A stretch of 64,000 nucleotides of DNA from the IMG/VR virus record IMGVR_UViG_3300045999_010033, positions 1 to 64,000 of that record; one strand, written 5' to 3'. Source of the DNA: a virus. The translations under genes and the position numbers were made by a program. The notes beneath the pieces are model-generated. The model was not told the DNA's origin and did no database searches. It saw only the letters and a program-made list of their open reading frames with translations. The stretch's first letter is position 1, and every line of letters starts with the position of its first letter. Shown piece by piece: positions 44,361 to 57,659 of this stretch.

Positions 44361-44471
44361 TGCCCCAGGCGGGGGTCGAACCCGCACTCGCTTTCAGCGA
44401 ACAAGATTAACGCCGCGACGTGTTGAAGCTTGCGTTAAGTCTTGCATGTCTACCTATTCCATCACCAGGGC
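44361..44471 (-). tRNA. tRNA-Leu(TAA)-like gene with 26-nt insertion in the anticodon loop
   Basis: Acceptor, D-arm, AC stem CAAGA/TCTTG, V-arm TCGC-TGAAA-GCGA and T-arm all fold; loop is 33 nt CTTAA[..]AA with internal 7-bp hairpin TTAACGC/GCGTTAA. Confidence 0.5.
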
Positions 44472-44526
44472 CCATACCTACCTTAATAGGTATGTTTGTC
44501 TATAATGTAAATATAGTAAAAGTTTT

Positions 44527-45594
44527 TTAATTATCCAAATCTTTCCGAAAAGGTTTTGCGTATTTAGGGCGAATACATTTCCATATAATAGAATCGTAAT
44601 CCCTCCCATCTAACATAGAAAATAATATTGATGCATGATTATAACGGATTGCTTTGATTGCAAACTCTTTTCTGCTCAAATTTTCACTACGAATGATTGA
44701 GAATATTTCCAAATAATCACGTTTAATATTTTCAAATCTAACTACCAAGTCTTTTACGGTATCCTTTACCCACGTATCAAATTCGTCCGGCACTCTTTCC
44801 AATAACTCATTCAAATCACCACCGGTCCGCAACAATTCCCAGATATCTACATTCGAAACATTGGTGATTATCTTATGAAGTCTTACATACTCTTCACCTT
44901 TGATTTTCATTCTCTTCCCACCTTTGAAACGTATTACATAACCTTCGGCATCATTTGAAATCATATCCTTCAACTTAGTGAAGTCAGTAACACCATTGTA
45001 CTTTCTAACAACTCTTACATCGGTAAAAAGTGCTACTGATTTAGTCAAAGTTTCAAATTCAATTTCGTCCAAAGTATCTCTATCATATGCACCCAACAAT
45101 ACCAAACCCTCAAATGGGTAGCGGCAGACTATCCGATTCTCATCATATATGATTTCAAAAAGGTAAGTCCAATTTTTTCTCAATCCAGTTGTAGGATAGT
45201 TTTTCAATATAGATAATCCCTTCAACATTTCAGTTGCCTTAACGGCTTGCTCTGAAACGAATGAACCTCTCGTTGCTACTATCCAATCTCCGTTATAGTA
45301 AAATGCAATTCCTAAAGAACCGTCCATCTTTTCAAAGACTTCAAATGATTCGTTTGGAATTTCACTATTGGATAATTCTTCCATATTGAAAAATTTTGGA
45401 AATGGTTTGGCTACCACAGTGCCTTCATTATCCAAAACCAATCCACGGCAATCCAATGTAACTGCATCCCACAATCGGTCGTATTGGCACGTTCTGCTGT
45501 AATTGTAGATTGATAAAGGTAACGTTGGATGGTCTTGCTTAACTATCAATCCTCGTCCGATATAATCGTTCAATATGTTTAATGGATATTTCAT
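44527..45594 (-). CDS. RNA ligase family protein (KxDG; Rnl2/DRB0094-like)
   Basis: 'FEKMDGSLGIAFY' motif I; 355 aa; upstream of Pnk-like kinase. Confidence 0.6.
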   Translation of the reverse strand: MKYPLNILNDYIGRGLIVKQDHPTLPLSIYNYSRTCQYDRLWDAVTLDCRGLVLDNEGTVVAKPFPKFFNMEELSNSEIPNESFEVFEKMDGSLGIAFYYNGDWIVATRGSFVSEQAVKATEMLKGLSILKNYPTTGLRKNWTYLFEIIYDENRIVCRYPFEGLVLLGAYDRDTLDEIEFETLTKSVALFTDVRVVRKYNGVTDFTKLKDMISNDAEGYVIRFKGGKRMKIKGEEYVRLHKIITNVSNVDIWELLRTGGDLNELLERVPDEFDTWVKDTVKDLVVRFENIKRDYLEIFSIIRSENLSRKEFAIKAIRYNHASILFSMLDGRDYDSIIWKCIRPKYAKPFRKDLDN

Positions 45595-45995
45595 AATTTT
45601 ACACTAAAACGTTTCCGCATTTTTTCCAAAGTCTCATCCGGTACACCATGTACGGATTTATTACCATGTCTATTTTCTACAATCAATGATACAACGGTGT
45701 ATCCATAGCTCTTTGCTAACTTCAAATATGGTTCAAGTTCCCTTTCGGTAGTTGCCGTATTGGATACTACAATCTCTTGTCCATACTGAGTCGTTTCACT
45801 CATTTGCATCAATTCCTCAACACGCTTTTGACAATCCAAATGGGCTTCATGCAATTTCGAAGCGTCAAAATTGTAGTTACCGTTTGAATCGTAAAAGTAT
45901 TGGTCTGCCTCAAACACATTATTTGAAAACATATATTTAGCAAATGAGCTTTTACCACTACCGGGTAAACCACGTAATATGATTAATGTTTTCAT
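45591..45995 (-). CDS. polynucleotide 5'-kinase (T4 Pnk kinase-domain-like)
   Basis: 'MKTLIILRGLPGSGKSSFA' closely resembles T4 Pnk N-terminus 'MKKIILTIGCPGSGKSTWA'; 134 aa. Confidence 0.65.
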   Translation of the reverse strand: MKTLIILRGLPGSGKSSFAKYMFSNNVFEADQYFYDSNGNYNFDASKLHEAHLDCQKRVEELMQMSETTQYGQEIVVSNTATTERELEPYLKLAKSYGYTVVSLIVENRHGNKSVHGVPDETLEKMRKRFSVKL

Positions 45996-46009
45996 ATGCT
46001 CTTTTTATA

Positions 46010-46348
46010 TTATTGTATAGATAAAAGATAAGTTTTTAATTTTTTCAAAACAACTTCGATGTTAAATGCTATTCGATATGGTCGTTTTAAACGGTGTTCA
46101 TCTATATTAATGTAAGTCACACGATGCCATCCCATAGCAAATAGCTGATATGTTCCATCGGAAAGGGGAGTTTTATATAAGATAACTTCCACAATCGGTC
46201 CGAAGGAGTTATTCTGTGCGTATGGTATATTTCTAAACCTAAATGCATAGCTAGGTCTACCTGCTACAAGCACTTCACCTACACTTTCTATTACGTGCCC
46301 ATCGCACTCCATTCCAACTGCCCTATCAATATTTTTTATGATTAACAT
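46010..46348 (-). CDS. hypothetical protein (paralog pair D, member 1)
   Basis: ML.IKNIDR..GM.C.G...YQLFAMGW..V. Confidence 0.5.
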   Translation of the reverse strand: MLIIKNIDRAVGMECDGHVIESVGEVLVAGRPSYAFRFRNIPYAQNNSFGPIVEVILYKTPLSDGTYQLFAMGWHRVTYINIDEHRLKRPYRIAFNIEVVLKKLKTYLLSIQ

Positions 46349-46357
46349 TTGTGAAAT

Positions 46358-46687
46358 TTATTTGTGTGATTCAATCCAATGTTGTAACTTCTTCAATACA
46401 GTTTTAATTCTACCAGCCAAACAATGGGCATGACGTATGTCGGATTCATCAACGTAAATAAACGTTACTTTCTGCCATCCCATAGCAAATAGTTGATACT
46501 TTCCATCAGAATTAGGAACTCTCTCCAATACAACTTCAACGATTGGACCACGAAGGCTACTCTGAACCCAAGGTATATCAAATTTAAATGTGTATCTAGT
46601 TTTGGATGCGTTTTGTCCAGCATCCATTACATCAATCCCATTACAAAACATTCCGATAATCCTATCAATATTTTTTATAACTAGCAT
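46358..46687 (-). CDS. hypothetical protein (paralog pair D, member 2)
   Basis: Paralogy. Confidence 0.5.
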   Translation of the reverse strand: MLVIKNIDRIIGMFCNGIDVMDAGQNASKTRYTFKFDIPWVQSSLRGPIVEVVLERVPNSDGKYQLFAMGWQKVTFIYVDESDIRHAHCLAGRIKTVLKKLQHWIESHK

Positions 46688-46703
46688 TTTTGCAATTTAT
46701 TTA

Positions 46704-46886
46704 TCAGATGTACTTACTAATATCTTCTTTCTCAATCTCCACTATCGAGTCATCAAGGATTTCTTTGTTATCGTGTCCGACTACAATGGCGGTATAGAAC
46801 TTGCCATCCAGTTCATAGACTTGATAAGCTGAGTCTTTTACCCATTCCCCTTCTCCAATTAAGGTTGCTTTATCTAGGTTTATCAT
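46704..46886 (-). CDS. hypothetical protein
   Basis: ORF track. Confidence 0.4.
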   Translation of the reverse strand: MINLDKATLIGEGEWVKDSAYQVYELDGKFYTAIVVGHDNKEILDDSIVEIEKEDISKYI

Positions 46887-47278
46887 TGTTTTTGTTTTAC
46901 TATTTCAATGAGTTTACGGAGACAAGCAAGTTCTGCTTCTTCTTGTCCATCAAAACTCCCAACCCAAATAGATTCATCTTTATTTTCATCTTGAATCCAT
47001 ATTTCGTACACCTTAGAAAAGGTATCAGGCATTTCAATTACTACTGATTTTCTATACCTAACAAAACTAATAAATAGCCCATAGTTCTTACGAAAGAATC
47101 TGAATGACTGTGAAAATGTTGGACTGAGAGTTATACCATCGCCTTGTCTATCAAAAGACTTTGAATAAAACTTTTTGTTTAGGAAATGTGCAAAACACGG
47201 TTCATCAAACCCAAGTTGCTTCAACTCAAACGCATCTTTGAATGGGATAAAATCTTTCATTGTTTTTGTTTTAGTCAA
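46883..47278 (-). CDS. hypothetical protein (paralog of 40162..40530)
   Basis: Paralogy. Confidence 0.5.
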   Translation of the reverse strand: MTKTKTMKDFIPFKDAFELKQLGFDEPCFAHFLNKKFYSKSFDRQGDGITLSPTFSQSFRFFRKNYGLFISFVRYRKSVVIEMPDTFSKVYEIWIQDENKDESIWVGSFDGQEEAELACLRKLIEIVKQKQ

Positions 47279-47449
47279 TTAAATTTAAAATCGCTACATA
47301 AAGAGCGTAAACGATAACACATAAAACTAAAATCACAATAATCATCATCGTTTCATACGGATATGTTTTTTCACTAATAAGCAATAACCCAAACACTAAT
47401 AATACCAAAAATGTGTAAAATGCTGCTTTAAGTTTCTTTTTCATAACTT

Positions 47450-48112
47450 TTATTTATATTTTTCTACTGATTCATGATGGTCGAAACTCATTAGGCTTTT
47501 GATTGGTTGCCTTCTCATACGGGTAGCAATTTCACTTACCGAAATCGGCCTCAAACCATTACCGTCCACACCAACATCCATCATTTTACCTGGTCCAATT
47601 CTACTAGCCATAGGTAAATGAACGTGTCCATGCAAATGAATTGCACCATTGGCCATTTGGTCCCAACTGGCAATAGGAAAGTGCATCAGTACAAACAATT
47701 CACTACTAACAAGCGGAGTACCCACATTCCGTTTTACAGTTAAATGTAAGTATTTGTTTACGGAACTGAAATGTGATTGACATCCTTCTTTGTTTCTCTC
47801 AATATGATGGTCGTGGTTTCCGGTGATGATGTGAATGTTCTTACATACGATACGATTACGGAAGGCTTCGATTTGCTCAAACCCACCAAAACTCCAATCG
47901 CCCAAATGAAAAAGAATATCATCTTGTCCGACTTCGGCGTTGATGTTATTCACCAATGTATCGTTCATTTCATCCAATGATTTGAAATCTCTACACGTCA
48001 CCGGGTCTTTCCATTGTGTTGTAGTGGAACAGATGTTGGCGTGATTGTAGTGTGTATCAGATGTGAACCACAATTGTTGACCTTTATTTAAACTTATTTT
48101 CATTTGTTTCAT
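47450..48112 (-). CDS. calcineurin-like metallophosphoesterase
   Basis: 'FTSDTHYNH', 'GDWSFGG', 'GNHDHH' motifs. Confidence 0.6.
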   Translation of the reverse strand: MKQMKISLNKGQQLWFTSDTHYNHANICSTTTQWKDPVTCRDFKSLDEMNDTLVNNINAEVGQDDILFHLGDWSFGGFEQIEAFRNRIVCKNIHIITGNHDHHIERNKEGCQSHFSSVNKYLHLTVKRNVGTPLVSSELFVLMHFPIASWDQMANGAIHLHGHVHLPMASRIGPGKMMDVGVDGNGLRPISVSEIATRMRRQPIKSLMSFDHHESVEKYK

Positions 48113-48296
48113 CTTTTAATACAATGATTTCTTTTACTTTCACCGGCCAAATAGGCATCCTATCAATCGTTACCTGCATATGCCCATGTAACGGATTCAC
48201 TCCGCACGATTGGCAGATACCAGTGATTCTTTGACCGGGCCACTTTGGATGGAGTACACTAATACGTTTACCAACCAAATTCAAATCGTTTCTCAT
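48084..48296 (-). CDS. hypothetical protein
   Basis: ORF track. Confidence 0.4.
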   Translation of the reverse strand: MRNDLNLVGKRISVLHPKWPGQRITGICQSCGVNPLHGHMQVTIDRMPIWPVKVKEIIVLKDETNENKFK

Positions 48297-48306
48297 AATA
48301 ATGTGT

Positions 48307-48960
48307 TTATCGCTCTTTAAGTTCTAATGAATCTAAGCTGAAGGGGCAGTACAGCAAAGTTGGATTCTTTTTCTGAATATCAACATTAGGATACTTCTTT
48401 TTGAACTCTATAACATCAAATCTATTAGTAATAAGATGAAATCCATTTTTAGTTGGAATTTCCGCAATACATTTATATCCTTCCGGTCTTAATACGTTGA
48501 TAAATGCCCGGATATCTTCTCTAACAATTTCATCCTTTGTATCAATATCGATAATCCAACGCTTCTCATAAGTTTTCAGTTGCCCAACAACCGAATCAAA
48601 TAAGTTGTTTTGAACGAACTGACCATCTTTGAGTCTTTGTGCCAAAGCCATCATCATATCCAATGAAACATCTTTATGATTTTGTTTCTGAATATGGATG
48701 TAGGCACGTGCTTTAAACATCTCACAAAGTTGGATTATTTCATCATAACGTTTTTCCAAATATTGAATACTGGAAACGCAATATGTTTTTATTGTACGAA
48801 CCGATTGGTGATTATCCCTTTCACCTTCGGGCTGGTCCTTCTTTCTTTTGAAGATATACAACATATAAAAGTCACCCTCGTTATCGAAGTTCAGCAAAGG
48901 TTTGATTAATTCGATATTGTTTATCATACTATACGATTTTTTAGACATAGTGGGTCTCAT
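48307..48960 (-). CDS. hypothetical protein (likely start at MSKKS)
   Basis: N-terminal codons in promoter repeat copy C. Confidence 0.5.
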   Translation of the reverse strand: MRPTMSKKSYSMINNIELIKPLLNFDNEGDFYMLYIFKRKKDQPEGERDNHQSVRTIKTYCVSSIQYLEKRYDEIIQLCEMFKARAYIHIQKQNHKDVSLDMMMALAQRLKDGQFVQNNLFDSVVGQLKTYEKRWIIDIDTKDEIVREDIRAFINVLRPEGYKCIAEIPTKNGFHLITNRFDVIEFKKKYPNVDIQKKNPTLLYCPFSLDSLELKER

Positions 48961-49100
48961 TGTGTATTACTACACAAAGTTAGGGCATTCTGTGCTAATA
49001 AACAAACCTATTTGTTGAATTTTTTCTAAATTTTTGAGGACTTTGTTAGAAAAAATCTAATAGTCATTGATTATCAACGAGTTATAACTCATTGATATTC
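48945..49100 (-). promoter_or_regulatory. conserved upstream repeat copy C
   Basis: See copy A. Confidence 0.6.
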
Positions 49101-49145
49101 TATGAATTATAACGTCTATTGATAATCAATGACTTACGTGGAGAA

Positions 49146-49604
49146 TTATCCCAAATAATCGAATTTTTTGATTATCTTTTTTAAGATTGCCGAATATCCA
49201 CTTGACTGGGAATATATTTTATCTAAATAGGATAGATACTCGGTTCGATTGGATATACTACGTTTTTGTATAAAACGGTCTTGCCACATTTTGTAATCCT
49301 TAACAGAATCTTTCCAACTGAAAAATGTAGCGTATCCACGATTAGATCCAGTGGCCAACGTCTCCCTCACTTTCGGATACTTCATTCCGAATAGATTGTT
49401 ATTTAATTTGAAGACTGTAGATTTAAAATGCCCACTTTCTAAAACAGCTTGTGCAAATACTACTTCGGGATATTTAATCCCATTTGCTATCAATTCACTC
49501 CACAATAATTCATAATTAGGAGGAGTATTCCGCGAGTTGTTCGCAGCGAAGCTCGTAAACAATAAAGGTAAGACGAGCAAACAAACAGTGATGATTTTTT
49601 TCAT
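49146..49604 (-). CDS. mannosyl-glycoprotein endo-beta-N-acetylglucosaminidase-like peptidoglycan hydrolase (candidate endolysin)
   Basis: Signal peptide; 'FAQAVLESGHFKS...NNLFGMK' glucosaminidase (FlgJ-type) signature. Confidence 0.6.
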   Translation of the reverse strand: MKKIITVCLLVLPLLFTSFAANNSRNTPPNYELLWSELIANGIKYPEVVFAQAVLESGHFKSTVFKLNNNLFGMKYPKVRETLATGSNRGYATFFSWKDSVKDYKMWQDRFIQKRSISNRTEYLSYLDKIYSQSSGYSAILKKIIKKFDYLG

Positions 49605-49656
49605 GCGCTTTTTGTTTTGATTAAAAATATGCCATCATTGTGACATTTATATTGAG

Positions 49657-49731
49657 TTGGGTGTGCCAGATTCGAACTGGCGATTTCTTGCTCCCAAAGC
49701 AAGCGCGATAACCGGACTACGCTAACACCCA
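49657..49731 (-). tRNA. tRNA-Pro(TGG)
   Basis: AC stem CTTGC/GCAAG loop TTTGGGA; T-arm GCCAG-TTCGAAT-CTGGC. Confidence 0.7.
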
Positions 49732-49780
49732 GTGTTTAAGTATTAAATATAAGTATTTTTTTGGATTAAACCAAAACTGA

Positions 49781-50515
49781 TTACCATTGTTTTTGAGATG
49801 TAACCAGGAATTGGTGAGCCGGTTGACCCGTGTTGGGGCTAACCCACGATAACCAAGATCCAGTTATTTGTTGAGGAGCCGGGCCTATTACTGATTTATA
49901 TGGAATACGTGCAATCAACGGCCCTTTAATTGTCAAACTACCCGTTGACCAAATGTATAATACAGAATTAGCAGGTAGTATATCTATTGGTGCTTTCCTT
50001 ATTAGGAATACACGCGTATCAGTTCCGGCAGTTGGGAAGCGGTTCATCTGTCCAATTCTTTCACCAACTGCGGTAGAGGCGGTTGCATTAGATGCCGTTG
50101 TATAATATAATGCGTAACTTTGTGTTACTGCACTTCTGGCTACAAGCGAATATCCAATAATATAATTGCCTTGTGGTATTACCGATGCTGTCATAGCAAA
50201 CGCAAATGGTGCACCCCAACTCGTACTACCAGTAGTAGGACCGGTTATTTGTGCATCGGTGTGACCATACTTCACCATACCATTCAATGCCGAAAATACT
50301 GCATTATACGATGCCGAGTTCACTTGAACAAAATCACCAACACTTGCCGAATCATAACTTGCGGTATTTGCCGACGAAAGTGCTGCACGAATTGCATCAG
50401 ATACTACCGATTGTGTTGCAGCCGCCCCTACGTTCATCACCATTCTGCCGATTCCGCTTTGATTATTCATTGATAATCCGCCGCCGGCTCCAGTATTTGA
50501 AAACTTTATGGGCAT
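49781..50515 (-). CDS. Gly/Ala/Ser/Thr-rich protein (possible structural/fibre-like)
   Basis: 244 aa, low complexity. Confidence 0.45.
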   Translation of the reverse strand: MPIKFSNTGAGGGLSMNNQSGIGRMVMNVGAAATQSVVSDAIRAALSSANTASYDSASVGDFVQVNSASYNAVFSALNGMVKYGHTDAQITGPTTGSTSWGAPFAFAMTASVIPQGNYIIGYSLVARSAVTQSYALYYTTASNATASTAVGERIGQMNRFPTAGTDTRVFLIRKAPIDILPANSVLYIWSTGSLTIKGPLIARIPYKSVIGPAPQQITGSWLSWVSPNTGQPAHQFLVTSQKQW

Positions 50516-50560
50516 CTCTTTTCCTTTATAATAGGTATAATGGAATTGAGAAAAAATGGT

Positions 50561-50633
50561 AGTCCCATCGTGATTCGAACACGAAACCTACGCTTTAGAA
50601 GAGCGTCGCTCTAATCCTGTTGAGCTATGGGAC
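50561..50633 (-). tRNA. tRNA-Arg(TCT)
   Basis: AC stem ACGCT/AGCGT loop CTTCTAA. Confidence 0.7.
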
Positions 50634-50653
50634 CATAAAAGATAATTATCTTT

Positions 50654-50727
50654 TGGCGGTTCGTAGGGGTTACGCTCCCCTGCCTTCGCAGTGACAGTGC
50701 GATATTCTACTATTATACTAACGAACC
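50654..50727 (-). tRNA. tRNA-Asp(GTC) with non-canonical T-loop (AGCGTAA) and encoded CCA
   Basis: Acceptor GGTTCGT/ACGAACC perfect, AC stem TCGCA/TGCGA loop CTGTCAC. Confidence 0.6.
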
Positions 50728-50734
50728 AAAACTG

Positions 50735-50817
50735 AGCCGAGAGCCGGATTCGAACCGGCGTGTCCTTGCGGATCCTGATTACAAGTCAGGTGCAATCGGC
50801 CACTATGCGACCTCGGC
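50735..50817 (-). tRNA. class-II (long V-arm, Tyr-like body) tRNA with anticodon TGT
   Basis: Perfect AC stem CCTGA/TCAGG, loop CTTGTAA; D-arm GCA-TAGTGGCCGAT-TGC nearly identical to tRNA-Tyr at 55439. Confidence 0.6.
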
Positions 50818-51027
50818 TTATATTATCTTACAATACTATATACAACCGTCAACATCCAACCATCTCCATTGCTGTTGGTATGTACTGATTCAATCTTTAT
50901 TGTGTTTGGTCCAAATTCTGCAACCCATGCATCAAATTGCCGATTCAATTCATCACCAGCAAAGGTGCCGCGTTTTCCACTTGTAAATACTTTAATCATA
51001 TACTTTTATTTTTATTTTCTGCGTCAG

Positions 51028-51152
51028 GGTGGGGAATCGAACCCCACACTCTCATACCAGGAGCTATGCCTAGAGTTACATCACGTATAGTGTTTTCACA
51101 CATCCCCTATATTATGCGACGGCCTTAACGTTTACCCATTACGTCACCTGAC
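51028..51152 (-). ncRNA. 125-nt tRNA-like gene with internal insertion
   Basis: 5' GTCAGGT-GA-CGT-AATGGGTAA-ACG (acceptor + D-arm) and 3' TGGGG-TTCGATT-CCCCA-CCCTGAC separated by about 50 extra nt. Confidence 0.4.
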
Positions 51153-51343
51153 TACCACTTCTATTTAATTTTGAATAGCCTATCGAAGAATCGTTTTAGA
51201 GTCGGTTTTAGTTTTCGATTTCTTTTTAGCTCTTCTTGATACGCTATTACTTCCAATACCTCATCAAACCTAATTGGAGTTCCTCTACGGACATCATCGG
51301 ATAACTTTTCTAATCTTTCGTTTTTCATTTTTTTATTGTTCAG

Positions 51344-51439
51344 TAGTCAGGACACGAATCGAATCTGTATTTAGGATTGTTTAATCGGGCTTCATACCGT
51401 ACCTACCTTTCGGTGCGTCTACCGTTCCGCCACCTGACT
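51344..51439 (-). pseudogene. degenerate copy of the AGTCAGG class-II tRNA-like element
   Basis: Acceptor AGTCAGG/CCTGACT and D-arm intact, T-stem and AC arm disrupted. Confidence 0.4.
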
Positions 51440-51446
51440 ATTTTAT

Positions 51447-51701
51447 TTATATCCACTTAATACGATTTTCTGTGTCCATCCATTGTTGGAATTGATTTTT
51501 GTTAACCAAACACGTTCTCTTTTCTTCACCAAACATATTATTCATTGTAATTGATGTATCAGGGACAGAAATCAAACACTCAACAATCAAATGATCCCCT
51601 ATCTCACCATGTTCATCATCATAATCTTTTTCTTTCCATCCTAAAATTTCCAAAACGTATTTATTATCTATTCTAATGAATTTTAAAAGACTTTTTTCCA
51701 T
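51447..51701 (-). CDS. hypothetical protein
   Basis: ORF track. Confidence 0.45.
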   Translation of the reverse strand: MEKSLLKFIRIDNKYVLEILGWKEKDYDDEHGEIGDHLIVECLISVPDTSITMNNMFGEEKRTCLVNKNQFQQWMDTENRIKWI

Positions 51702-51702
51702 G

Positions 51703-52011
51703 TTATTTAGTTTTTGCGATTTCTACATTCAAAGCATTATTGAGCAATGAATACAATTTTGATGTAAAATCTCTCGAAAAGATTGACATCCAATTCATCT
51801 CTGTTTCCAACTCCTCAATAGATTCACGAATACTATCTTGATATCCTTTATGGTTAGTCACAATCCACAATGCAAGATTATTAATTCTTACTTTAAGTGA
51901 CTCGGATAAACATCCGTTATTTTGCATCATACAAAAAACTTGGTCTGCCCATTCATTACCACCAGTATCAAACAACTTGTTTTTGTCAGTGTATTTTTTC
52001 ATAATAATCAA
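51703..52011 (-). CDS. hypothetical protein
   Basis: ORF track. Confidence 0.45.
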   Translation of the reverse strand: MIIMKKYTDKNKLFDTGGNEWADQVFCMMQNNGCLSESLKVRINNLALWIVTNHKGYQDSIRESIEELETEMNWMSIFSRDFTSKLYSLLNNALNVEIAKTK

Positions 52012-52018
52012 TTTTTAG

Positions 52019-52096
52019 TAGTCAGGACAGGATTCGAACCTGCATGGTCACTCCTTTGTGTACACCGCGAGCTGCGTTACCATTCGCCACCTGACT
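52019..52096 (-). tRNA. AGTCAGG class-II tRNA-like element (no canonical anticodon stem found)
   Basis: Acceptor AGTCAGG/CCTGACT, D-arm GCG-AATGGTAA-CGC, T-arm GCAGG-TTCGAAT-CCTGT. Confidence 0.45.
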
Positions 52097-52240
52097 AACC
52101 ATAGGAAAGAAGAAGATGGTCGCGTGGACAACTTCTTTTACGATTGGCGTTACTTAGGTGAATACCTCCCAACTCCGATTATATCAGCCGGTATTCACTC
52201 TCGTGCTGTTGATATAATCATTCCCCAATCAACCTATTTG

Positions 52241-52313
52241 TACTCCCGACCGGAATCGAACCGGCATCTTCAGATCGAAAATCTGACGAACTCAACCATT
52301 ATTCGACGGGAGC
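52241..52313 (-). tRNA. tRNA-Glu(TTC)
   Basis: AC stem TCAGA/TCTGA loop TTTTCGA. Confidence 0.65.
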
Positions 52314-52362
52314 AATTGTTATACAATGATAAGGAATTTATTTGTATATTCCAAATCTATGT

Positions 52363-52438
52363 GGGTAACTAATGGGGTACGATCCCATAATCTTCTGCTT
52401 CACAAACAGACGCTTTATTCCATTTAAGCGATAGCTAC
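52363..52438 (-). tRNA. tRNA-His(GTG) with extra 5' G(-1)
   Basis: AC stem TCTGT/GCAGA loop TTGTGAA; T-loop ATCGTAC. Confidence 0.7.
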
Positions 52439-52447
52439 CATATAAAG

Positions 52448-52519
52448 AGGCGGGAGTAGGAATCGAACCTACCTAAGAGGGGTTGCAGTCCTCCACCTGA
52501 GCCACTCGGCCATCCCGCC
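52448..52519 (-). tRNA. tRNA-Cys(GCA)
   Basis: Acceptor GGCGGGA/TCCCGCC; AC loop CTGCAAC. Confidence 0.65.
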
Positions 52520-52525
52520 AGCCTA

Positions 52526-53086
52526 TTACCTATCCATTATGATTTTAGCAAAATTCGTATCAACCTTCACTCTCTCTATCAATTGCTGCGATGTCATATT
52601 TTTAGCTTCTTCCAATATCTTGTCCTTTTGGCTTGCTATACCCAAATCCACCTGTGCTTCCTTTGCCATTGATTTCAATTCAGTAACTACAAAGGTAGAA
52701 AGTTCATGCGGTATTTGTTTAGCCGCCGAATCCGTAGTAAGGAATTGCATCGTACCACCGCCGGCTATGATTAGTAATGTTTCTTTCTTTGTAGGAGTAA
52801 ACATATAACCCGCCCAAGTAATCAAAGATAAAACCAAAGTAACATAAAATATACTTGAGATGTATCGTTTTAACATTTTTGCCGAACGAACCTCAGGATG
52901 TGTTTTTTCTTCTTCTTCGGTTTTACAATTACCATCAGAAATTTGACTCATTAAATGCATCGCCGCACCTATCATCGCAATAAATGCAAAAATAGCCATC
53001 CACGTAAAAATATCACTTGCTACATCGAAGAAAGTCCTAACAGAATCTGCACGAGTTACCCAATAAAAAATAGAATACCAATTCAT
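52526..53086 (-). CDS. integral membrane protein
   Basis: Three predicted TM helices. Confidence 0.5.
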   Translation of the reverse strand: MNWYSIFYWVTRADSVRTFFDVASDIFTWMAIFAFIAMIGAAMHLMSQISDGNCKTEEEEKTHPEVRSAKMLKRYISSIFYVTLVLSLITWAGYMFTPTKKETLLIIAGGGTMQFLTTDSAAKQIPHELSTFVVTELKSMAKEAQVDLGIASQKDKILEEAKNMTSQQLIERVKVDTNFAKIIMDR

Positions 53087-53105
53087 AACATTTGATTTTA
53101 AAAAA

Positions 53106-53348
53106 TTAAACTAATTTATTTGCGATTTTCAAAATTGTTTCCTCATCTTCTTTTGTTAGTTTCCACGCATTTCCAATGAGTTTGCTTACTTGCGCATCAA
53201 ATTCACTAACGGATACATCATCCGGATGAACTCCACCCATTTGCTTTGGAACATATCCATCTTCATACAATGCGTCTGCTAACTCTTGCTTTTCATATCG
53301 GGCTAAACCGAAAATAAGGTCATCAACATCAATTTCAATACTTGCCAT
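53106..53348 (-). CDS. hypothetical protein
   Basis: ORF track. Confidence 0.45.
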   Translation of the reverse strand: MASIEIDVDDLIFGLARYEKQELADALYEDGYVPKQMGGVHPDDVSVSEFDAQVSKLIGNAWKLTKEDEETILKIANKLV

Positions 53349-53358
53349 AACTTTTATT

Positions 53359-53880
53359 TTATTTATTTAGTTTACTAATACACTCATCAACTTTGTCACG
53401 CAACCTACCACCATTTCCGTGGTCACCATTCACCTGAACGTGTCTCCATTGTGGAACACGCATCCATTTGAATTGGCCGGCGAGATTCAAATCATCAATG
53501 GCAATCCAATTTTTCACTCCGTTATCCTTTACCCATTTACGAATTTCTGCCGCACGTTCCCATTCGATTGGTGGACGGCTCATTTTCTTCCATAGGTCTT
53601 GATGTGTGGTGATATCAATCAACAAGTGACCAGGTATTCCAAAGTGTTCAAATACTCGTTTCATTTGGATAAAACTGAAATGCTTTCTCCAATCCGAGCT
53701 CAATACAAGTCGTGCATCAGTCTCACGAAGAACTTTGTGTAGAGCCTGGCAATCTTCCTCTACCCATCTGTATGGGATTTTGAACAATTGTGAACCGGCG
53801 TGCAGTTCAACACGGCCCGTTCCCCATGTTCCCCATGCCAATGGGCCATCAACATCAATGAATATGATTTTATTGTTCAT
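53359..53880 (-). CDS. HAD-family phosphatase (T4 Pnk 3'-phosphatase-domain-like)
   Basis: 'IIFIDVDGPLA' DxDG(T/P) motif I at N-terminus. Confidence 0.55.
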   Translation of the reverse strand: MNNKIIFIDVDGPLAWGTWGTGRVELHAGSQLFKIPYRWVEEDCQALHKVLRETDARLVLSSDWRKHFSFIQMKRVFEHFGIPGHLLIDITTHQDLWKKMSRPPIEWERAAEIRKWVKDNGVKNWIAIDDLNLAGQFKWMRVPQWRHVQVNGDHGNGGRLRDKVDECISKLNK

Positions 53881-54559
53881 CTTTTTTAGTTTTTAATCTC
53901 AAGTCACCAAACTTACTATTGGCGAGCAAGTCATCGTAATCTTTGTATCCTTGCTCTCTCGCCCATTCATCGCTTTTCTTTTGGCGATACTCTTTTACTT
54001 TCTCCGGGTCTTTCATTTGCTCAACACTCTCAAACCCTAAATCACGTGCACATTCCGATTCGCACCATCCATGTGAACCGATTTCTATATTGATTGGAAG
54101 GTCGGTTTCCAATGATTCGATGAAATTTTCAAATTGATTTGCAGCTACAAATGGCATTGAGTAACTACCTTCGGAAACAGCGTATCCGCTTTCATCTTCA
54201 CTATCGAATATCTCAATCCTACCCATACGATACCTTTCACCGAATAATGAAAATACACCATAGCCAACGGTAGAGTAACTGAACCGACCCGGATGACTTA
54301 CCCCTTCGTTATCAATACAACCGGGGTTCACTTCCATCCAATTGGCCAATTCATTAATCAATTCTTCATCGGATAATTCTGGCGATTTACGCCTGATGTT
54401 TTTGAGAAACCATCCTAACTTACTTCTATCCACTTTCATAACAATTCGTTTTAATGTAGCCTCTGAGCGAATCGAACGCCCACCAATTGATCCGTAGTCA
54501 ATCATTCTATCCGTTAAACTAAAAGGCCGGTTAGCACGGGTTGTAAGAATCGAACTCAC
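53870..54559 (-). CDS. hypothetical protein
   Basis: ORF track; N-terminus may overlap tRNA-Arg by a few nt. Confidence 0.45.
   Translation of the reverse strand: MSSILTTRANRPFSLTDRMIDYGSIGGRSIRSEATLKRIVMKVDRSKLGWFLKNIRRKSPELSDEELINELANWMEVNPGCIDNEGVSHPGRFSYSTVGYGVFSLFGERYRMGRIEIFDSEDESGYAVSEGSYSMPFVAANQFENFIESLETDLPINIEIGSHGWCESECARDLGFESVEQMKDPEKVKEYRQKKSDEWAREQGYKDYDDLLANSKFGDLRLKTKKDEQ
54457..54528 (-). tRNA. tRNA-Arg(ACG)
   Basis: AC stem ATTGA/TCAAT loop CTACGGA; G-U-rich acceptor. Confidence 0.65.
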
Positions 54560-54603
54560 TCCTAGGGATTTGGAGTCCCATTGGCTACCATAGCCTAACC
54601 CGT
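54535..54603 (-). tRNA. tRNA-Trp(CCA) (short D-arm)
   Basis: Acceptor ACGGGTT/AACCCGT; AC loop CTCCAAA. Confidence 0.6.
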
Positions 54604-54608
54604 GTATG

Positions 54609-54682
54609 TGTTTGGAGTGAGACTCGAACTCACATCCTCTTCGGTATCAGCGAAGTGCTCCAACCAATTGAGCTATCCAAAC
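54609..54682 (-). tRNA. tRNA-Ile(GAT)
   Basis: Acceptor GTTTGGA/TCCAAAC; AC stem CTTCG/CGAAG loop CTGATAC. Confidence 0.75.
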
Positions 54683-54686
54683 ATTG

Positions 54687-54760
54687 TGACCCCGCTGCGA
54701 CTCGAACGCAGGACTCCTAAATTAAAAGTTTAGTGCTCTAACCAACTGAGCTACGAGGTC
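54687..54760 (-). tRNA. tRNA-Lys(TTT)
   Basis: AC stem CTAAA/TTTAG loop CTTTTAA. Confidence 0.75.
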
Positions 54761-54766
54761 AACTAT

Positions 54767-55291
54767 TCATTCTATATCAGAATTAGAATTGTACTGAAAC
54801 GTTATAAACGTATGTTCCAAGTACATATCATGTTCTATCTTTATATTTTCCGGAGAGATATCATAAGAACACATATCACAATTCCACAATGCTTCCCACA
54901 ATCCGGCTTTGAATTGGGCCTCATCGTTGTATTTGGTCAAACCCAATATACATCCCAACGTCGGCGGTAAATACTTTCTTTCCAATTCTTTACAATGTTC
55001 TCTATACGCTTTCCAATTCTCCGGATTTTCCATATCACTCGTCCATGCATCATGCAGTTTTTTATTCATATCCGTATCCTCTTCGCTTACCTGAATCAGG
55101 TTATTAGAGTGTAGGTATTCGGTGGACAGTGTAGGCAAATTGTTTGTTACAATGTATTCACCTACATACATTCCGAGCATATAATCAACACTAACGGAAT
55201 CAAACCACTTTTGAGTTTGGGCGATTTGCTCTTCCCTATATTCGGGCGTCTTCACTCTACGAAACAATTCATCCAATGATATTTTACGCAT
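54767..55291 (-). CDS. hypothetical protein
   Basis: ORF track. Confidence 0.5.
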   Translation of the reverse strand: MRKISLDELFRRVKTPEYREEQIAQTQKWFDSVSVDYMLGMYVGEYIVTNNLPTLSTEYLHSNNLIQVSEEDTDMNKKLHDAWTSDMENPENWKAYREHCKELERKYLPPTLGCILGLTKYNDEAQFKAGLWEALWNCDMCSYDISPENIKIEHDMYLEHTFITFQYNSNSDIE

Positions 55292-55308
55292 ATTATTATT
55301 TTTTAGTG

Positions 55309-55383
55309 GTGGAGCCTCAGGGAATCGAACCCCATCCTCCCGCTCTTCAGGCGGGCGTACGCACCAGCTATACGAAAGCTCCT
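55309..55383 (-). tRNA. tRNA-Phe(GAA) with encoded CCA
   Basis: AC stem CCCGC/GCGGG loop CTGAAGA. Confidence 0.7.
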
Positions 55384-55438
55384 GGCGGCCGCCTCTTACT
55401 ATTTCATAAGATATTTACTCAGGCATTTGGCCATGTTG

Positions 55439-55520
55439 TTGGGGTAGACGGACTCGAACCGCCGGACTCCGAAGAGAGAGCATTTACAGTGCCCCGCAAT
55501 TGCCGCTATGCGATACCCCA
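55439..55520 (-). tRNA. tRNA-Tyr(GTA)
   Basis: Class II; AC loop CTGTAAA; V-arm CTC-TTCG-GAG. Confidence 0.7.
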
Positions 55521-55526
55521 TTGTAG

Positions 55527-55598
55527 TAGAAGGTGGGAATTACGATATCCCGACCTCTTGGATGTAAACCAAGTGCTCTGCCTCTGAGCTAACCTTCT
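55527..55598 (-). tRNA. tRNA-Val(TAC)
   Basis: AC stem CTTGG/CCAAG loop TTTACAT. Confidence 0.7.
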
Positions 55599-55628
55599 CC
55601 GTTTTCCATATGTCAAAGAACATACCTG

Positions 55629-55700
55629 CGCTGATGGAGAATTACGATATCCCGACCTGAGTCTTAACAGGACCCTGCTCTACCTCTGAGCTACATCAGC
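55629..55700 (-). tRNA. tRNA-Asn(GTT)
   Basis: Acceptor GCTGATG/CATCAGC; AC loop CTGTTAA. Confidence 0.7.
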
Positions 55701-55717
55701 AAATGACAATAACGAAA

Positions 55718-55752
55718 ATACCCCCGAAACAATCAGGGGTATTTTACGCTAT
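55718..55752 (-). terminator. stem-loop (ATACCCC...GGGGTAT, 7 bp) followed by T-run on minus strand
   Basis: Seen in sequence between tRNA at 55915 and tRNA cluster. Confidence 0.35.
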
Positions 55753-55914
55753 CACAGTCTACTTATATGTTCACTATGCCCCTGCTATACATTTGTATCG
55801 AACACGCAGACTCCTTCCCACTTAATGATGGGATACGTGCGATTGATATGTTTATTAAACAGGTTCATAATTGTTTTGTTATAAGTATAAAGTATTTTCA
55901 AAAAAAGTTACCAG

Positions 55915-55985
55915 AGCGAAGCCAGAGAGTCGAACTCCATCCTGCGACCTGGAGGGCCGCCGTGCTACCGTTACACTAACTCCAC
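55915..55985 (-). tRNA. tRNA with anticodon TCC (Gly-like; loop CCTCCAG, C33)
   Basis: D-arm GTG-TAACGGTAG-CAC; G-U-rich acceptor. Confidence 0.5.
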
Positions 55986-55989
55986 TTAT

Positions 55990-57060
55990 AAAGGTGAGAT
56001 TACCCTTTGTTGAGAACAGCCTTTAGAAAGATTATTAGTTCCTCTCTTATCCACCACCTTTTGAGCGGTATCCGTTCAGTGTCGGTTAGTAATGCTAACC
56101 ACTCATTAAGTTACTGACTACTCTCTTATTACTCCCCTTCTTCTACCCTGCCGAGCAGATTCACACTTGCGGTGTTAGAAGCTTTTCGTAAGAATCACAG
56201 ACCTCTTGCGGAGGTATCGTGGCTGGGAACAACTCCCAACTATGTAGACACCTTTCATCCGTAACTGATGGGCACTTATGCTTCATTTTGATTTTATAGT
56301 TTTGCTACCAAATGCAAGTATAAAGTTGGTTTGTAGATTGATTCAGGTAGTGGCCCATCTGCCAGCTCCCTCACCTTTTGAGTGAGGAAATACTAAACTA
56401 CCCGATGTGATATCCCTATCACCATATTTTAAGTCTGCTTCATAACTCATGCTTTGGTAAGCGAAGGTTAAGGGCAACAACGACACCACTCGTACTTTAC
56501 CATACCTTTCGGTTTTAAGTGAACTCTAATATTGGATAACGAAATGATACGAAGGGATTAAGTTCGTACTTCTCACATATACCCTATGGGTTATTCCTAT
56601 TATCCTTCCGGATTCAAATGAACTATCTACTTAGCCCATTCACCCAGACACCTCACCTACAGCCTTGCCGTCAGTTACTAAGTCCGAGTGGTATCCCACT
56701 TGCCTACTCAACCTCTTTTGGGAGGCGCATCGGTGCTTAACCAAACACCAACACTTTATCCTACTTTCGTAGTTTATTTAACGACCATAGGCGGCCGATT
56801 TGTACTATGTAACGCGAGGTTACTATGTACTCATTTCGTAATGTAAAAGAACTTTAATGTGAACCAAACTTACGCCCTATTAAGGATACTCCGTTTATAC
56901 TACTTTCACATCTGAATCGGTAGTGCGATTTTACTAAAGATAAGTAAAGTTTTTCAAATTACCAAATCTTTATTCGTTGAACATTTTCGGTTATGTTTAT
57001 TTACACCATATAATACTTCCTACTTCTGAACAAGTTTATAAAGTTAAGTAAAGTTTTTCA
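55990..57060. ncRNA. about 1.07-kb ORF-free region flanked by tRNAs; candidate large structured ncRNA
   Basis: No ORF of 60 aa or more in any frame of ORF track; internal short repeats (CACCTTTTGAG, AAGTAAAGTTTTTCAA). Confidence 0.35.
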
Positions 57061-57079
57061 ACTTTCCAAATCTTTATAG

Positions 57080-57151
57080 TTGCGGGGGGTGGAATCGAAC
57101 CACCGTAGGCGAGGCTTATGAGACCTGCGGATAACCAACAATCTCCCCACA
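57080..57151 (-). tRNA. tRNA-Met(CAT) (or Ile-lysidine) copy 1
   Basis: AC loop CTCATAA with 4-bp stem; T-arm GGTGG-TTCGATT-CCACC. Confidence 0.55.
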
Positions 57152-57657: not shown

Positions 57658-57659
57658 AA

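Follow-up and report, generated by a model that had tools for sequence, protein, structure and literature searches.

A tRNA-Thr(UGU) with a class-II body in a phage tRNA array belongs to a conserved family found in phages and Cytophagales chromosomes

We examined a 64-kb stretch of viral DNA, here called the window, which carries on its minus strand an array of tRNA genes, accompanied by a GOLLD RNA and by a tmRNA gene. Inside this array lies a gene for a tRNA that combines the anticodon UGU with a long variable arm. This gene, its parts and other features of the array used in the analysis are as follows.

42828–57994, minus strand: array of about 26 tRNA genes for all 20 amino acids that also holds a GOLLD RNA and a tmRNA gene (ARAGORN, Rfam, sequence)
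50657–50727, within the minus-strand array: tRNA-Asp (read from the sequence)
50735–50817, minus strand: complete class-II-bodied tRNA-Thr(UGU), 83 nt through the discriminator, CCA not encoded, CA next (ARAGORN, Rfam, sequence)
50811–50817, minus strand: 5' strand of the acceptor stem, GCCGAGG, positions 1–7, with the Thr-type pairs G1-C72, C2-G71, C3-G70 and G4-C69
50792–50810, minus strand: U8, C9 and the D arm, with a 3-bp GCA/UGC stem, the 11-nt loop UAGUGGCCGAU and a U13·U22 mismatch; near-invariant across the class-II tRNA-Thr family
50774–50790, minus strand: anticodon arm CCUGA-CUUGUAA-UCAGG, of which 15 of 17 positions agree with the E. coli thrU arm; covariation in the family extends to all five pairs
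50781–50783, minus strand: anticodon UGU, positions 34–36, with U33 before and A37 after (ARAGORN, sequence)
50760–50773, minus strand: long variable arm A-UCC-GCAA-GGA-CAC, 14 nt, made up of 1 nt, a 3-bp stem, a GNRA-type tetraloop and 3 nt; the three stem pairs covary
50743–50759, minus strand: T arm GCCGG-UUCGAAU-CCGGC (sequence, family covariation)
50735–50742, minus strand: acceptor stem's 3' strand, UCUCGGC, positions 66–72, and the discriminator U73 at 50735 (sequence)
55439–55520, minus strand: tRNA-Tyr(GUA) (ARAGORN, Rfam)
55629–55700, within the minus-strand array: tRNA-Asn (read from the sequence)

The gene runs from its 5' end at 50817 to the discriminator at 50735. ARAGORN called it as tRNA-Thr(tgt) at 50734–50817(-), and the Rfam tRNA covariance model RF00005 matched 50735–50817(-) with 55.7 bits (E=1e-9; gathering score, 29). 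The tRNA reads GCCGAGG UC GCA UAGUGGCCGAU UGC A CCUGA CUUGUAA UCAGG A-UCC-GCAA-GGA-CAC GCCGG UUCGAAU CCGGC UCUCGGC U, with a standard 7/5 acceptor/T branch (7-bp acceptor stem, 5-bp T stem), and it falls into class II, which we define here by two features, a 3-bp D stem and a stem-loop variable region no shorter than 10 nt. A preliminary description made from the letters alone had proposed a class-II, Tyr-like body with a Thr anticodon, and the sequence, ARAGORN and Rfam bear this out, down to the GCA/UGC D arm, the perfectly paired anticodon stem CCUGA/UCAGG, the 7-nt loop that yields UGU, and the tRNA-Tyr(GUA) gene further along the array to which it had compared the body. The loop reads CUUGUAA and not CTGTAAA, a realignment that had also been considered. 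Another early suggestion, that of an annotation trap, finds no support, since both finders call a tRNA and GenBank records of T5-like phages already label homologues as tRNA-Thr.

In this set, which has tRNAs for all 20 amino acids, Thr is represented by the class-II tRNA alone. Neither ARAGORN nor Rfam found another Thr tRNA in the 64-kb window (none in positions 1–40000); another may lie outside the window. The combination envisaged earlier as fatal to the proposal, a class-I tRNA-Thr(TGT) elsewhere and a pseudogene-like score here, did not materialise: the 64 kb yielded no class-I tRNA-Thr, and the tRNA score is good. The proposed codon-usage check showed that Thr makes up 5.6% of codons in the window and that ACA is the commonest Thr codon (ACA 31%, ACU 28%, ACC 22%, ACG 19%). 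This ordinary usage and the Thr signature at the acceptor end speak against the further suggestion of a recoding tRNA. Among window ORFs of at least 150 aa, we found no phage-encoded ThrRS or other aminoacyl-tRNA synthetase; the window does encode an RNA-repair kit comprising two RNA ligases, a cREC domain, a SAK-HAD domain and a kinase-like protein. No close phage relatives of the window were found in INPHARED, where matches were only tRNA-sized, and the best matches of its DNA ligase and Rnl1 were huge uncultured phages (595–735 kb), at about 48% identity.

To define a family around this gene, we used the pairs G1-C72, C2-G71 and Y3-R70, the nucleotides U8-C9, the D arm GCA-UAGNGGNNGAU-UGC, A26, the loop YUUGUAA, a variable arm of ~14 nt (1 nt, 3 bp, tetraloop, 3 nt), and U73 or A73, all of which are present in the window tRNA. 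IMG/VR was scanned twice, with an anticodon-arm pattern and with an anticodon-blind D-arm pattern, each scan reaching at least 119–120 contigs. Combined, the scans yielded at least 108 distinct class-II Thr(UGU) sequences at no fewer than 164 loci, placing this tRNA in well over a hundred phage contigs. Among the matches listed for the anticodon-blind scan, this D arm occurs in 82 distinct tRNAs, 52 of which have both UGU and the long arm. A likeness of the anticodon stem to that of class-I tRNA-Thr, apparent in the first data set, was discarded as circular because the scan pattern had fixed that arm, and was replaced by the anticodon-blind scan.

An ungapped alignment of 49 sequences had 99.1% of cells paired, compared with 69.3% in shuffles, with double-sided changes in 18 of the 23 pairs and a covariation score of 0.752 (0.155 in shuffles). 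Compensatory changes are seen in every stem; all three pairs of the variable stem covary in these sequences, and the family contains at least 51 distinct variable stems. RNAalifold, independently of the covariation count, recovered this same class-II cloverleaf for the family. The single-sequence MFE fold of the window tRNA (z = -2.5) shows an alternative D/anticodon pairing in place of the D and anticodon arms; the predicted cloverleaf is supported by the family covariation. The window gene is a real tRNA, chance being excluded by the covariance-model score and the covarying homologue family. The loop YUUGUAA is present in 106 of the 108 family members listed, and conservation is likewise strict for the Thr acceptor signature, for G18-G19 and for the T loop UUCGAAU. 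The family is under purifying selection.

In the phage arrays, a class-I Thr(UGU) gene accompanies the class-II gene at just 9 of 165 loci, among the matches listed. Of the Thr isoacceptors in these arrays, UGU alone is class II, GGU and CGU having class-I bodies. Phage arrays also contain, sporadically, tRNAs for Asn(GUU), Gly(UCC) and Met(CAU) with a long arm.

The family extends to cultured phages and to bacterial chromosomes. The window tRNA is 77% identical to a chromosomal class-II tRNA-Thr from Spirosomataceae, 72% to the one homologue in a Pseudomonas phage and 68% to the T5-like homologue. The latter, 87 nt long, is present in about 100 T5-like phage records, where it is mostly labelled tRNA-Thr and occupies the same relative place as the T5 gene, just ahead of the Ile and Met tRNA genes; T5's own tRNA-Thr(UGU) is a 75-nt class-I molecule. 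In one of these phages, Bas33/HildyBeyeler, no Thr tRNA other than the class-II one occurs in the tRNA region examined (62–92 kb of the record), which also encodes an 86-nt long-arm Asn(GUU). Five Cytophagales MAGs carry the class-II tRNA-Thr as a lone gene adjoining a DUF349 gene, in a syntenic neighbourhood with housekeeping genes such as RpiB and PdxH, and the identity of the neighbouring DUF349 proteins across these MAGs falls from 77% down to 34%. Judging from these MAGs, the class-II tRNA-Thr is probably a vertically inherited chromosomal gene in Cytophagales. The premise of the preliminary description that bacterial tRNA-Thr is class I is thus broken by a class-II tRNA-Thr(UGU) lineage in phages and Cytophagales chromosomes. 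Because the family is large and spans both, the long arm would be a stable trait of this lineage and no recent accident.

We then asked which amino acid the sequence of this tRNA specifies. Threonine identity resides in the acceptor pairs 1-72, 2-71 and 4-69 and in positions 35 and 36 of the anticodon, the discriminator being dispensable (PMC9976931, PMC13433404). The window tRNA has the full set (G1-C72, C2-G71, G4-C69, G35, U36) together with the 7-nt loop C32 U33 U34 G35 U36 A37 A38. Among the 108 class-II Thr members listed, G1-C72 is found in 104 and C2-G71 in 107, pair 3-70 is C-G or U-A, and the discriminator is U73 in 91 (84%) and A73 in 16; class-I Thr(UGU/CGU/GGU) tRNAs at the same loci carry the same acceptor signature, and the acceptor stems nearest to that of the window tRNA all belong to class-I tRNA-Thr. 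The window tRNA shares its loop and these identity elements with the class-I tRNA-Thr(UGU) of E. coli (thrU) and T5 (T5t03), has acceptor pairs 1–5 and 15 of 17 anticodon-arm bases identical to thrU, and occupies the same role in phage arrays. It differs from them in its body, having a 3-bp D stem, U8-C9, U13·U22 and a 14-nt stem-loop arm where thrU and the T5 tRNA, at 75–76 nt, have a 4-bp D stem and a 4–5-nt variable loop. This class-I body is customary in tRNA-Thr and is no known identity determinant.

The other long-armed isotypes fit less well. Leu tRNAs listed from the same loci have A73 (101 of 104) and U8-G9 (99 of 104), unlike the U73 and U8-C9 of the window tRNA. For Ser we looked for G2-C71 with A3-U70, a variable stem of 5–7 bp and G73, the discriminator alone not being decisive since U73 occurs in 29 of the 114 Ser tRNAs listed from the same loci; these have G2-C71 with A3-U70 (112 of 114) and variable stems of 5–6 bp, as opposed to C2-G71, C3-G70 and a 3-bp stem in the window tRNA. 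With bacterial tRNA-Tyr(GUA) the window tRNA shares U8-C9, the 3-bp D stem and the variable-arm geometry (1 nt, 3 bp, tetraloop, 3 nt), and differs from it in having UGU instead of GUA, C2-G71 instead of G2-C71 and U73 instead of A73; Tyr tRNAs listed from the same loci have G2-C71 in 34 of 45, with G3-C70, and A73 in 43 of 45. The preliminary description had called the tRNA almost identical to the window's tRNA-Tyr, which holds for the D arm (0.80 similarity over positions 8–26) and the variable-arm geometry but not for the whole molecule, at 51% identity. With 52–55% identity to the window's Leu tRNAs and 40–52% to its Ser tRNAs, the tRNA is no closer to Tyr than to these.

Taken together, these features make it highly probable that the gene encodes a functional elongator tRNA-Thr(UGU) with a class-II body, charged by the host ThrRS and reading ACA and ACG. 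Such a tRNA would be transcribed within the minus-strand array, and its CCA would be added enzymatically because the gene encodes none. The host threonyl-tRNA synthetase would recognise G1-C72, C2-G71, G4-C69, G35 and U36, all present in the sequence, and would charge the tRNA with threonine; the charged tRNA would then decode ACA and ACG, and with a modified U34 it might read ACU as well. In the array, the class-II tRNA fills the Thr slot of a 20-amino-acid phage tRNA set. The reading assumes that ThrRS tolerates the long arm. ThrRS is a class-II synthetase and approaches its tRNA on the variable-loop side. Indirect evidence that a class-II tRNA-Thr works in E. coli comes from Bas33: PARIS destroys host tRNA-Thr(UGU), and Bas33 escapes when given T5 tRNA-Lys alone, whereas T7 needs both the Lys and the Thr tRNA to escape (PMC12409363). 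We set aside the PARIS experiments with "T5 tRNA-Thr" as direct evidence on the class-II type; since the T5 tRNA used is the 75-nt class-I molecule, they are no direct test of the class-II family.

A refinement of this explanation, compatible with it, holds that the molecule is a true tRNA-Thr whose class-II body was selected as refractory to host tRNA-targeting nucleases while a host-like anticodon arm was kept. tRNA-Thr(UGU) is a favoured target of the anticodon-arm nucleases PARIS AriB and P2-OLD, according to two recent studies (PARIS: PMC12409363). The restriction of the class-II body to the UGU isoacceptor would fit such selection, as would the pairing in Bas33 of the class-II Thr(UGU) with a long-arm version of Asn(GUU), another AriB target, and the presence of the RNA-repair kit in the same window. 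The window tRNA retains the cleavage-site sequence U36-A-A-U-C|A41 and the C28-U29-G30 motif, so resistance, if any, would have to stem from the body. However, the PARIS and OLD papers map resistance to anticodon-arm substitutions, the variable arm being mentioned in neither; Bas33 is naturally PARIS-sensitive; and Cytophagales have this body fixed in their chromosomes, a setting in which escape from the cell's own nucleases is a less obvious driver. The window tRNA resembles the anti-defence tRNA-Thr(UGU) molecules of T5, phage 21 and the coliphage library, which counter PARIS AriB and P2-OLD, in being the same isoacceptor in a phage tRNA array. It differs from them in having a host-like anticodon stem and an altered body, the characterised anti-defence tRNAs having anticodon-stem substitutions on class-I bodies. 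We regard this refinement as possible but, on balance, doubtful.

In its fullest form, the long-armed body would be an adaptive disguise, in which threonine identity and a host-like anticodon arm are mounted on a Tyr-type scaffold that blocks nuclease docking and leaves ThrRS and the ribosome undisturbed; phages would have spread the design over enterobacteria, Pseudomonas and uncultured hosts, and Cytophagales would have fixed it as their chromosomal tRNA-Thr(UGU). We offer this as speculation that is rather unlikely to hold in full. If it did, the long-arm Asn(GUU), Gly(UCC) and Met(CAU) tRNAs would be further cases of the same strategy.

Long variable arms can also serve miscoding. In nematodes, nev-tRNAs that have a long variable arm and the anticodon of a class-I amino acid (Gly or Ile) are charged with Leu (PMC3333845, PMC4033280), and by analogy an anticodon-blind SerRS or LeuRS might charge the window tRNA through its long arm, so that ACA would be read partly as Ser or Leu. 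A long variable arm with U73, the discriminator also of those 29 Ser tRNAs, has been read as a SerRS signature in allo-tRNAs (Mukai 2017, PMC5389517). These (8/4) tRNAs likewise have a non-canonical long V arm and, in some, U73, and come from metagenomes and phage tRNA clusters, but they have 8/4 or 9/3 branches and Sec-like D arms and are inferred to accept Ser, unlike the 7/5 branch and Thr-type acceptor stem found here. The near-universal C2-G71 of the family stands against the G2-C71 of Ser, and its variable stem of 3 bp with 3 unpaired 3' nucleotides is Tyr-like, compared with 5–6 bp and 1 nt in Ser; the predominance of U73 excludes the Leu signature, and position 9 is C where Leu and Ser have G9. 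Moreover, nev-tRNAs carry Leu identity elements, are weakly expressed and act on rare codons as missense tRNAs, whereas the identity elements of the class-II tRNA-Thr match its anticodon and a common codon is decoded mainly or solely by it. Because it is usually the sole UGU tRNA in complete arrays and is also a conserved chromosomal gene, proteome-wide miscoding is unlikely, and Ser-tRNAThr is reported to be hydrolysed by ThrRS editing (PMC4041444). We therefore judge a missense role to be improbable.

A non-translational role, in which a tRNA-like RNA keeps the tRNA shape as a nuclease decoy, primer or regulator, is very improbable. The GOLLD RNA and tmRNA in the same array, and the possibility raised in the PARIS paper that overexpressed viral tRNAs act as competitive inhibitors (PMC12409363), lend it some plausibility. 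Against it stand the strict conservation of the YUUGUAA loop, the T loop, G18-G19 and the Thr acceptor signature, the occupation of the Thr slot of otherwise complete arrays by the class-II gene, and its occurrence as a single chromosomal gene in Cytophagales.

The idea that the gene is a recently mutated tRNA-Tyr copy or pseudogene, in which a one-nucleotide loop change from CUGUAAA to CUUGUAA shifted the register from GUA to UGU, draws on the likeness to the window's tRNA-Tyr in D arm and variable-arm geometry and is extremely improbable, given the higher identity to class-II Thr homologues (68–77%) than to that tRNA, the un-Tyr-like acceptor stem (C2-G71), discriminator and anticodon stem, and the at least 108 distinct, covarying family members; the same features dispose of the Tyr isoacceptor altered at a single loop nucleotide that had been proposed at first. 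At the 23 loci with both genes, D-arm similarity between the class-II Thr and Tyr tRNAs is 0.60 within a locus and 0.58 between loci, which rules out repeated local origin from, or gene conversion with, the Tyr gene of the same genome. An ancient origin from a Tyr-type body is possible.

Reviews confine the long variable arm to tRNA-Leu, tRNA-Ser, Sec and, in bacteria, tRNA-Tyr (PMC4033280, PMC7609411), a rule that this conserved, covarying tRNA-Thr(UGU) lineage breaks. We found no description of a class-II tRNA-Thr in the full-text literature searched, all of it from outside the subscription journals. The finding is relevant to annotation, because classifiers that compare isotype model with anticodon may flag such genes as conflicts. 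The class-II tRNA-Thr is also a natural test case for the handling of a class-II body by ThrRS, EF-Tu, modification enzymes and the ribosome. Moreover, it bears on the phage–host arms race over tRNA-Thr(UGU), and since Bas33 is a cultured E. coli phage, this question is directly testable.

The gene at 50735-50817 (minus strand) scores 55.7 bits against the Rfam tRNA model (E=1e-9, gathering score 29), and ARAGORN calls it tRNA-Thr(tgt) at 50734-50817(-). From 5' to 3' it reads GCCGAGG UC GCA-UAGUGGCCGAU-UGC A CCUGA-CUUGUAA-UCAGG A-UCC-GCAA-GGA-CAC GCCGG-UUCGAAU-CCGGC UCUCGGC U, and forms the following cloverleaf.

Cloverleaf of the window tRNA
Acceptor stem, 7 bp, and T stem, 5 bp: both normal
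D arm: 3-bp stem, 11-nt loop
Anticodon stem: 5 bp, no mismatch
Anticodon loop: 7 nt, U33, anticodon U34-G35-U36
Variable arm: 14 nt, 3-bp stem, GCAA loop
Discriminator: U73; CCA not encoded

The class-II body, D arm, paired anticodon stem and UGU loop of the preliminary description are all present in the sequence. Its further claim, near identity to tRNA-Tyr, stands for the D arm (0.80 over positions 8-26) and the arm geometry, but not overall: identity to the Tyr, Leu and Ser tRNAs of the window is 51%, 52-55% and 40-52%, respectively, so that Tyr is no closer than Leu or Ser. Single-sequence minimum free energy folding yields an alternative D/anticodon pairing. Such misfolds are frequent when one tRNA sequence is folded alone, and we set this one aside because covariation in the family overrides single-sequence folding.

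A blastn search of phage records with the window tRNA recovered class-II tRNA(UGU) genes in two cultured-phage groups, namely Pseudomonas phage vB_PpS_SYP, with an 83-nt copy unannotated in its record, and T5-like phages (~100 records), with an 87-nt copy that includes CCA and is annotated "tRNA-Thr". IMG/VR was scanned with an anticodon-arm pattern and, blind to the anticodon, with a D-arm pattern only; each scan matched at least 119-120 contigs, and the fetched loci were processed with ARAGORN and a cloverleaf parser. Among the matches listed, class-II Thr(UGU) tRNAs account for at least 108 distinct sequences at 164 loci. UGU and a long arm go together in 52 of the 82 distinct tRNAs with the same D arm listed from the D-arm scan, the remainder being Gly(UCC), Tyr, Ser, Met and a few others.

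Consensus of the class-II tRNA-Thr(UGU) family
G1-C72: 96%
C2-G71: 99%
3-70: C-G or U-A
U8-C9: 87%
D stem: GCA/UGC plus U13·U22
A26: 91%
Anticodon loop: YUUGUAA
T loop: UUCGAAU in most
Discriminator: U73 84%, A73 15%
Variable arm: usually 14-15 nt, that is, 1 nt, 3-4 bp, GNRA-like tetraloop, 3-4 nt

The class-II structure is under selection. When 49 distinct 83-nt members were aligned without gaps and the class-II cloverleaf was supplied, 99.1% of paired cells were complementary compared with 69.3% after shuffling (a level attained in 0 of 500 shuffles), and sliding the 3' partners by 1-3 columns reduces pairing to 28-42%. Changes on both sides occur in 18 of the 23 pairs, and the covariation score is 0.752 vs 0.155 in the comparison. 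Each of the three pairs in the variable stem covaries, showing four to six pair types, and 51 different sequences of this stem occur in the family; RNAalifold predicts the identical class-II cloverleaf when no structure is given.

Published Thr identity consists of G1-C72, C2-G71, G4-C69 and anticodon positions 35 and 36, with the discriminator not essential (PMC9976931; PMC13433404), and every element of this set is present in the window tRNA. Across the same loci, the identity positions separate Thr, Ser, Tyr and Leu cleanly.

Identity positions by tRNA group
Class-I Thr (UGU, CGU, GGU): 1-72 G-C; 2-71 C-G; 3-70 C-G or U-A; N73 U > A
Class-II Thr (UGU): 1-72 G-C 104/108; 2-71 C-G 107/108; 3-70 C-G or U-A; N73 U 91, A 16
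Ser: 1-72 G-C; 2-71 G-C 112/114; 3-70 A-U; N73 G 80, U 29, A 5
Tyr: 1-72 G-C; 2-71 G-C; 3-70 G-C; N73 A 43/45
Leu: 1-72 G-U or G-C; 2-71 mostly C-G; 3-70 mostly C-G; N73 A 101/104

The three acceptor stems nearest to that of the window tRNA belong to class-I Thr tRNAs, and E. coli thrU, a class-I tRNA-Thr(UGU), has identical acceptor pairs 1-5 and shares 15 of 17 bases in the anticodon arm. The body, in contrast, is of Tyr type: U8-C9 is present, and the variable arm consists of 1 nt, 3 bp and 3 nt, unlike those of Leu (0, 4 bp, 1-2 nt) and Ser (1, 5-6 bp, 1 nt). The window tRNA thus joins a Thr-type acceptor end and anticodon to a Tyr-type core.

The window (G+C 37.5%; 80 of 87 long ORFs on the minus strand) carries a minus-strand array at 42.8-58.0 kb with ~26 tRNA genes, a GOLLD RNA and a tmRNA.

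Features of the window
50657-50727, minus: tRNA-Asp(GUC), found by Rfam, missed by ARAGORN
55629-55700, minus: tRNA-Asn(GUU), found by Rfam, missed by ARAGORN; unusual T loop AUCGUAA
55991-56405, minus: GOLLD RNA (Rfam RF02032, 296.6 bits, full length, model positions 1-416), between tRNA-Gly(UCC) 55914-55985 and tRNA-Gln 57185-57257
57661-57994, minus: tmRNA (Rfam 68 bits; ARAGORN tag peptide GNTYANAEYAVAA), immediately upstream of tRNA-Met
29919-31145, 33006-33503, 44527-45594, 53359-53880, 58133-58873, all minus: RNA-repair genes interleaved with the tRNA array, respectively for Rnl1-type RNA ligase, cyclic-phosphate-processing cREC domain, second RNA ligase, Swiss-Army-Knife HAD domain, and kinase-like P-loop protein (Zeta/AAA_33)
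27105-28598, 34372-35667, 35710-37863, 38211-38729, all minus: auxiliary metabolic genes for nicotinamide phosphoribosyltransferase (PHROG E=1e-191), porphyrin/cobalamin-chelatase-like ATPases and a heme-oxygenase-like protein

Counting Asp(GUC) and Asn(GUU), every one of the 20 amino acids is represented in the tRNA set. A check of the ORFs of at least 150 aa revealed no aminoacyl-tRNA synthetase. The tRNA-Val(UAC) at 55526-55598, a neighbor of tRNA-Asn(GUU), has a similar T arm, and the window tRNA-Tyr starts with U1-A72. No close relative of the window was found among sequenced phages; uncultured huge phages of 595-735 kb give the best matches to the DNA ligase and Rnl1 (~48% identity) and, likewise, the best protein matches among sequenced phages.

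The class-II gene is the sole Thr tRNA in the 64-kb window: a search across it for a conventional class-I tRNA-Thr, which the preliminary description had set against its reading, found none. Of the Thr codons in the window, ACA is used most (31%), and the frequency of Thr is ordinary (5.6%). Only 9 of 165 loci with the class-II tRNA have a class-I Thr(UGU) alongside; in arrays of 10-37 tRNAs, the class-II tRNA is normally the sole UGU tRNA, and Thr(GGU) and Thr(CGU) are class I.

T5 proper has a 75-nt class-I tRNA-Thr(UGU) directly ahead of the Ile and Met tRNA genes (L123 4668-4742), whereas ~100 relatives have at that place an 87-nt class-II gene of unrelated sequence (L002, a T5-like phage, 1492-1578; L124, Bas33, 16775-16861). 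This shared place points to gene replacement, rather than insertion, as the probable origin of the class-II tRNA-Thr in T5-like phages, and experiments with 'T5 tRNA-Thr' do not apply to the class-II type because T5 proper has the class-I version. In Bas33 (HildyBeyeler), the 87-nt gene is the only Thr tRNA within the tRNA region fetched, and Lys(CUU) takes the place of Lys(UUU). T5 tRNA-Lys on its own suffices to rescue Bas33 from PARIS, whereas T7, without tRNAs, requires Lys and Thr (PMC12409363), which gives indirect evidence for ACA decoding by the class-II tRNA in E. coli. The long arm passed unremarked, as the word "variable" is absent from both PMC12409363 and the P2-OLD paper PMC12445682.

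The gene, its selected structure, the identity signature, the occupancy of the Thr slot and the wide distribution are direct observations. The gene is probably a true tRNA-Thr(UGU) built on a class-II body: CCA would be added to the transcript, host ThrRS would charge it through the acceptor and anticodon determinants, and the charged tRNA would read ACA and ACG. A doubtful but compatible refinement is that the class-II body is favored since tRNA-Thr(UGU) is a preferred nuclease target. The RNA-repair toolkit interleaved with the array is consistent with conflict with host tRNA nucleases; the window tRNA retains the host-like U36-A-A-U-C|A41 site and C28-U29-G30 motif used by AriB, the PARIS nuclease, and OLD (PMC12409363; PMC12445682), so any resistance would need to come from the body.

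Missense charging by SerRS or LeuRS is unlikely. A long arm plus U73 was taken as a SerRS signature in allo-tRNAs (Mukai 2017, PMC5389517), so U73 alone cannot exclude serine, but C2-G71 and the arm geometry are unlike Ser and argue against that identity. A non-translational RNA is still harder to credit for a gene that normally supplies the only UGU tRNA of its array, and a recent Tyr mutant or pseudogene, despite the Tyr-type core, is highly improbable for a family with this distribution and selected structure.

Reviews hold the V-arm to be specific to Leu, Ser and bacterial Tyr, with nev-tRNAs and allo-tRNAs as exceptions (PMC7609411; PMC4033280; PMC5389517). We found no description of a class-II tRNA-Thr in the full-text literature, older subscription-journal papers lying outside that search. 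Class-II genes are already in GenBank as plain "tRNA-Thr", and the window gene adds one more to a family whose representatives had in part been sequenced before.

Across phage arrays, other tRNAs also join a long variable arm to a class-I anticodon (loci L124, L003, L018, L190, L206, L246, L188, L201 and L257), for example an 86-nt Asn(GUU) in Bas33 (L124 11551-11636), Asn (85 nt) and Glu (89 nt) in Klebsiella phage phi1_175008 (L003 1766-1850, 2551-2639), a Gly(UCC) group with the D arm of the Thr family and U73, and a Met(CAU) group. Conversely, loci L001-L258 include 47 distinct Leu-anticodon, A73 tRNAs with a variable loop of class-I length (4-7 nt), two of them annotated 77-nt genes of Bas33 (L124 9603-9679 and 14565-14641). 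The window also has an isolated odd class-II tRNA at 12284-12376(-) (Rfam 44 bits; ARAGORN 'tRNA-???') with A73, a Leu-like D arm GUG-AAAUAGGUAGA-CAC, a variable arm of 24 nt and, between CCAGC and GCUGG, the 6-nt anticodon loop AUCCGA; scanning IMG/VR for its exact arm gave only unrelated coding matches.

In a scan of bacterial and archaeal genomes, the class-II tRNA turned up in Cytophagales MAGs as a tRNA gene standing by itself (L125 4796-4880; L136; L137; L149; L130; L143; L147). These MAGs are Spirosomataceae (4.28-Mb contig), Fibrella, two Cytophagales and Hymenobacter, whose 2.9-Mb contig has two copies; the same pattern also matched archaeal and Saprospiraceae tRNAs, which are class I. 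The Spirosomataceae copy and the window tRNA share 77% identity. A DUF349 gene adjoins the tRNA in five MAGs, with protein identity from 77% down to 34%, and other neighbors include RpiB, PdxH and response regulators, in a setting of housekeeping genes. Pair 4-69 is A4-U69 in Hymenobacter and G4-C69 in Spirosomataceae-type copies, a compensatory change. By its sequence and neighborhood, the Cytophagales tRNA has the pattern expected of a chromosomal gene passed on vertically rather than of a prophage array, and these MAGs suggest that the class-II gene is a candidate for the cellular tRNA-Thr(UGU) of Cytophagales.
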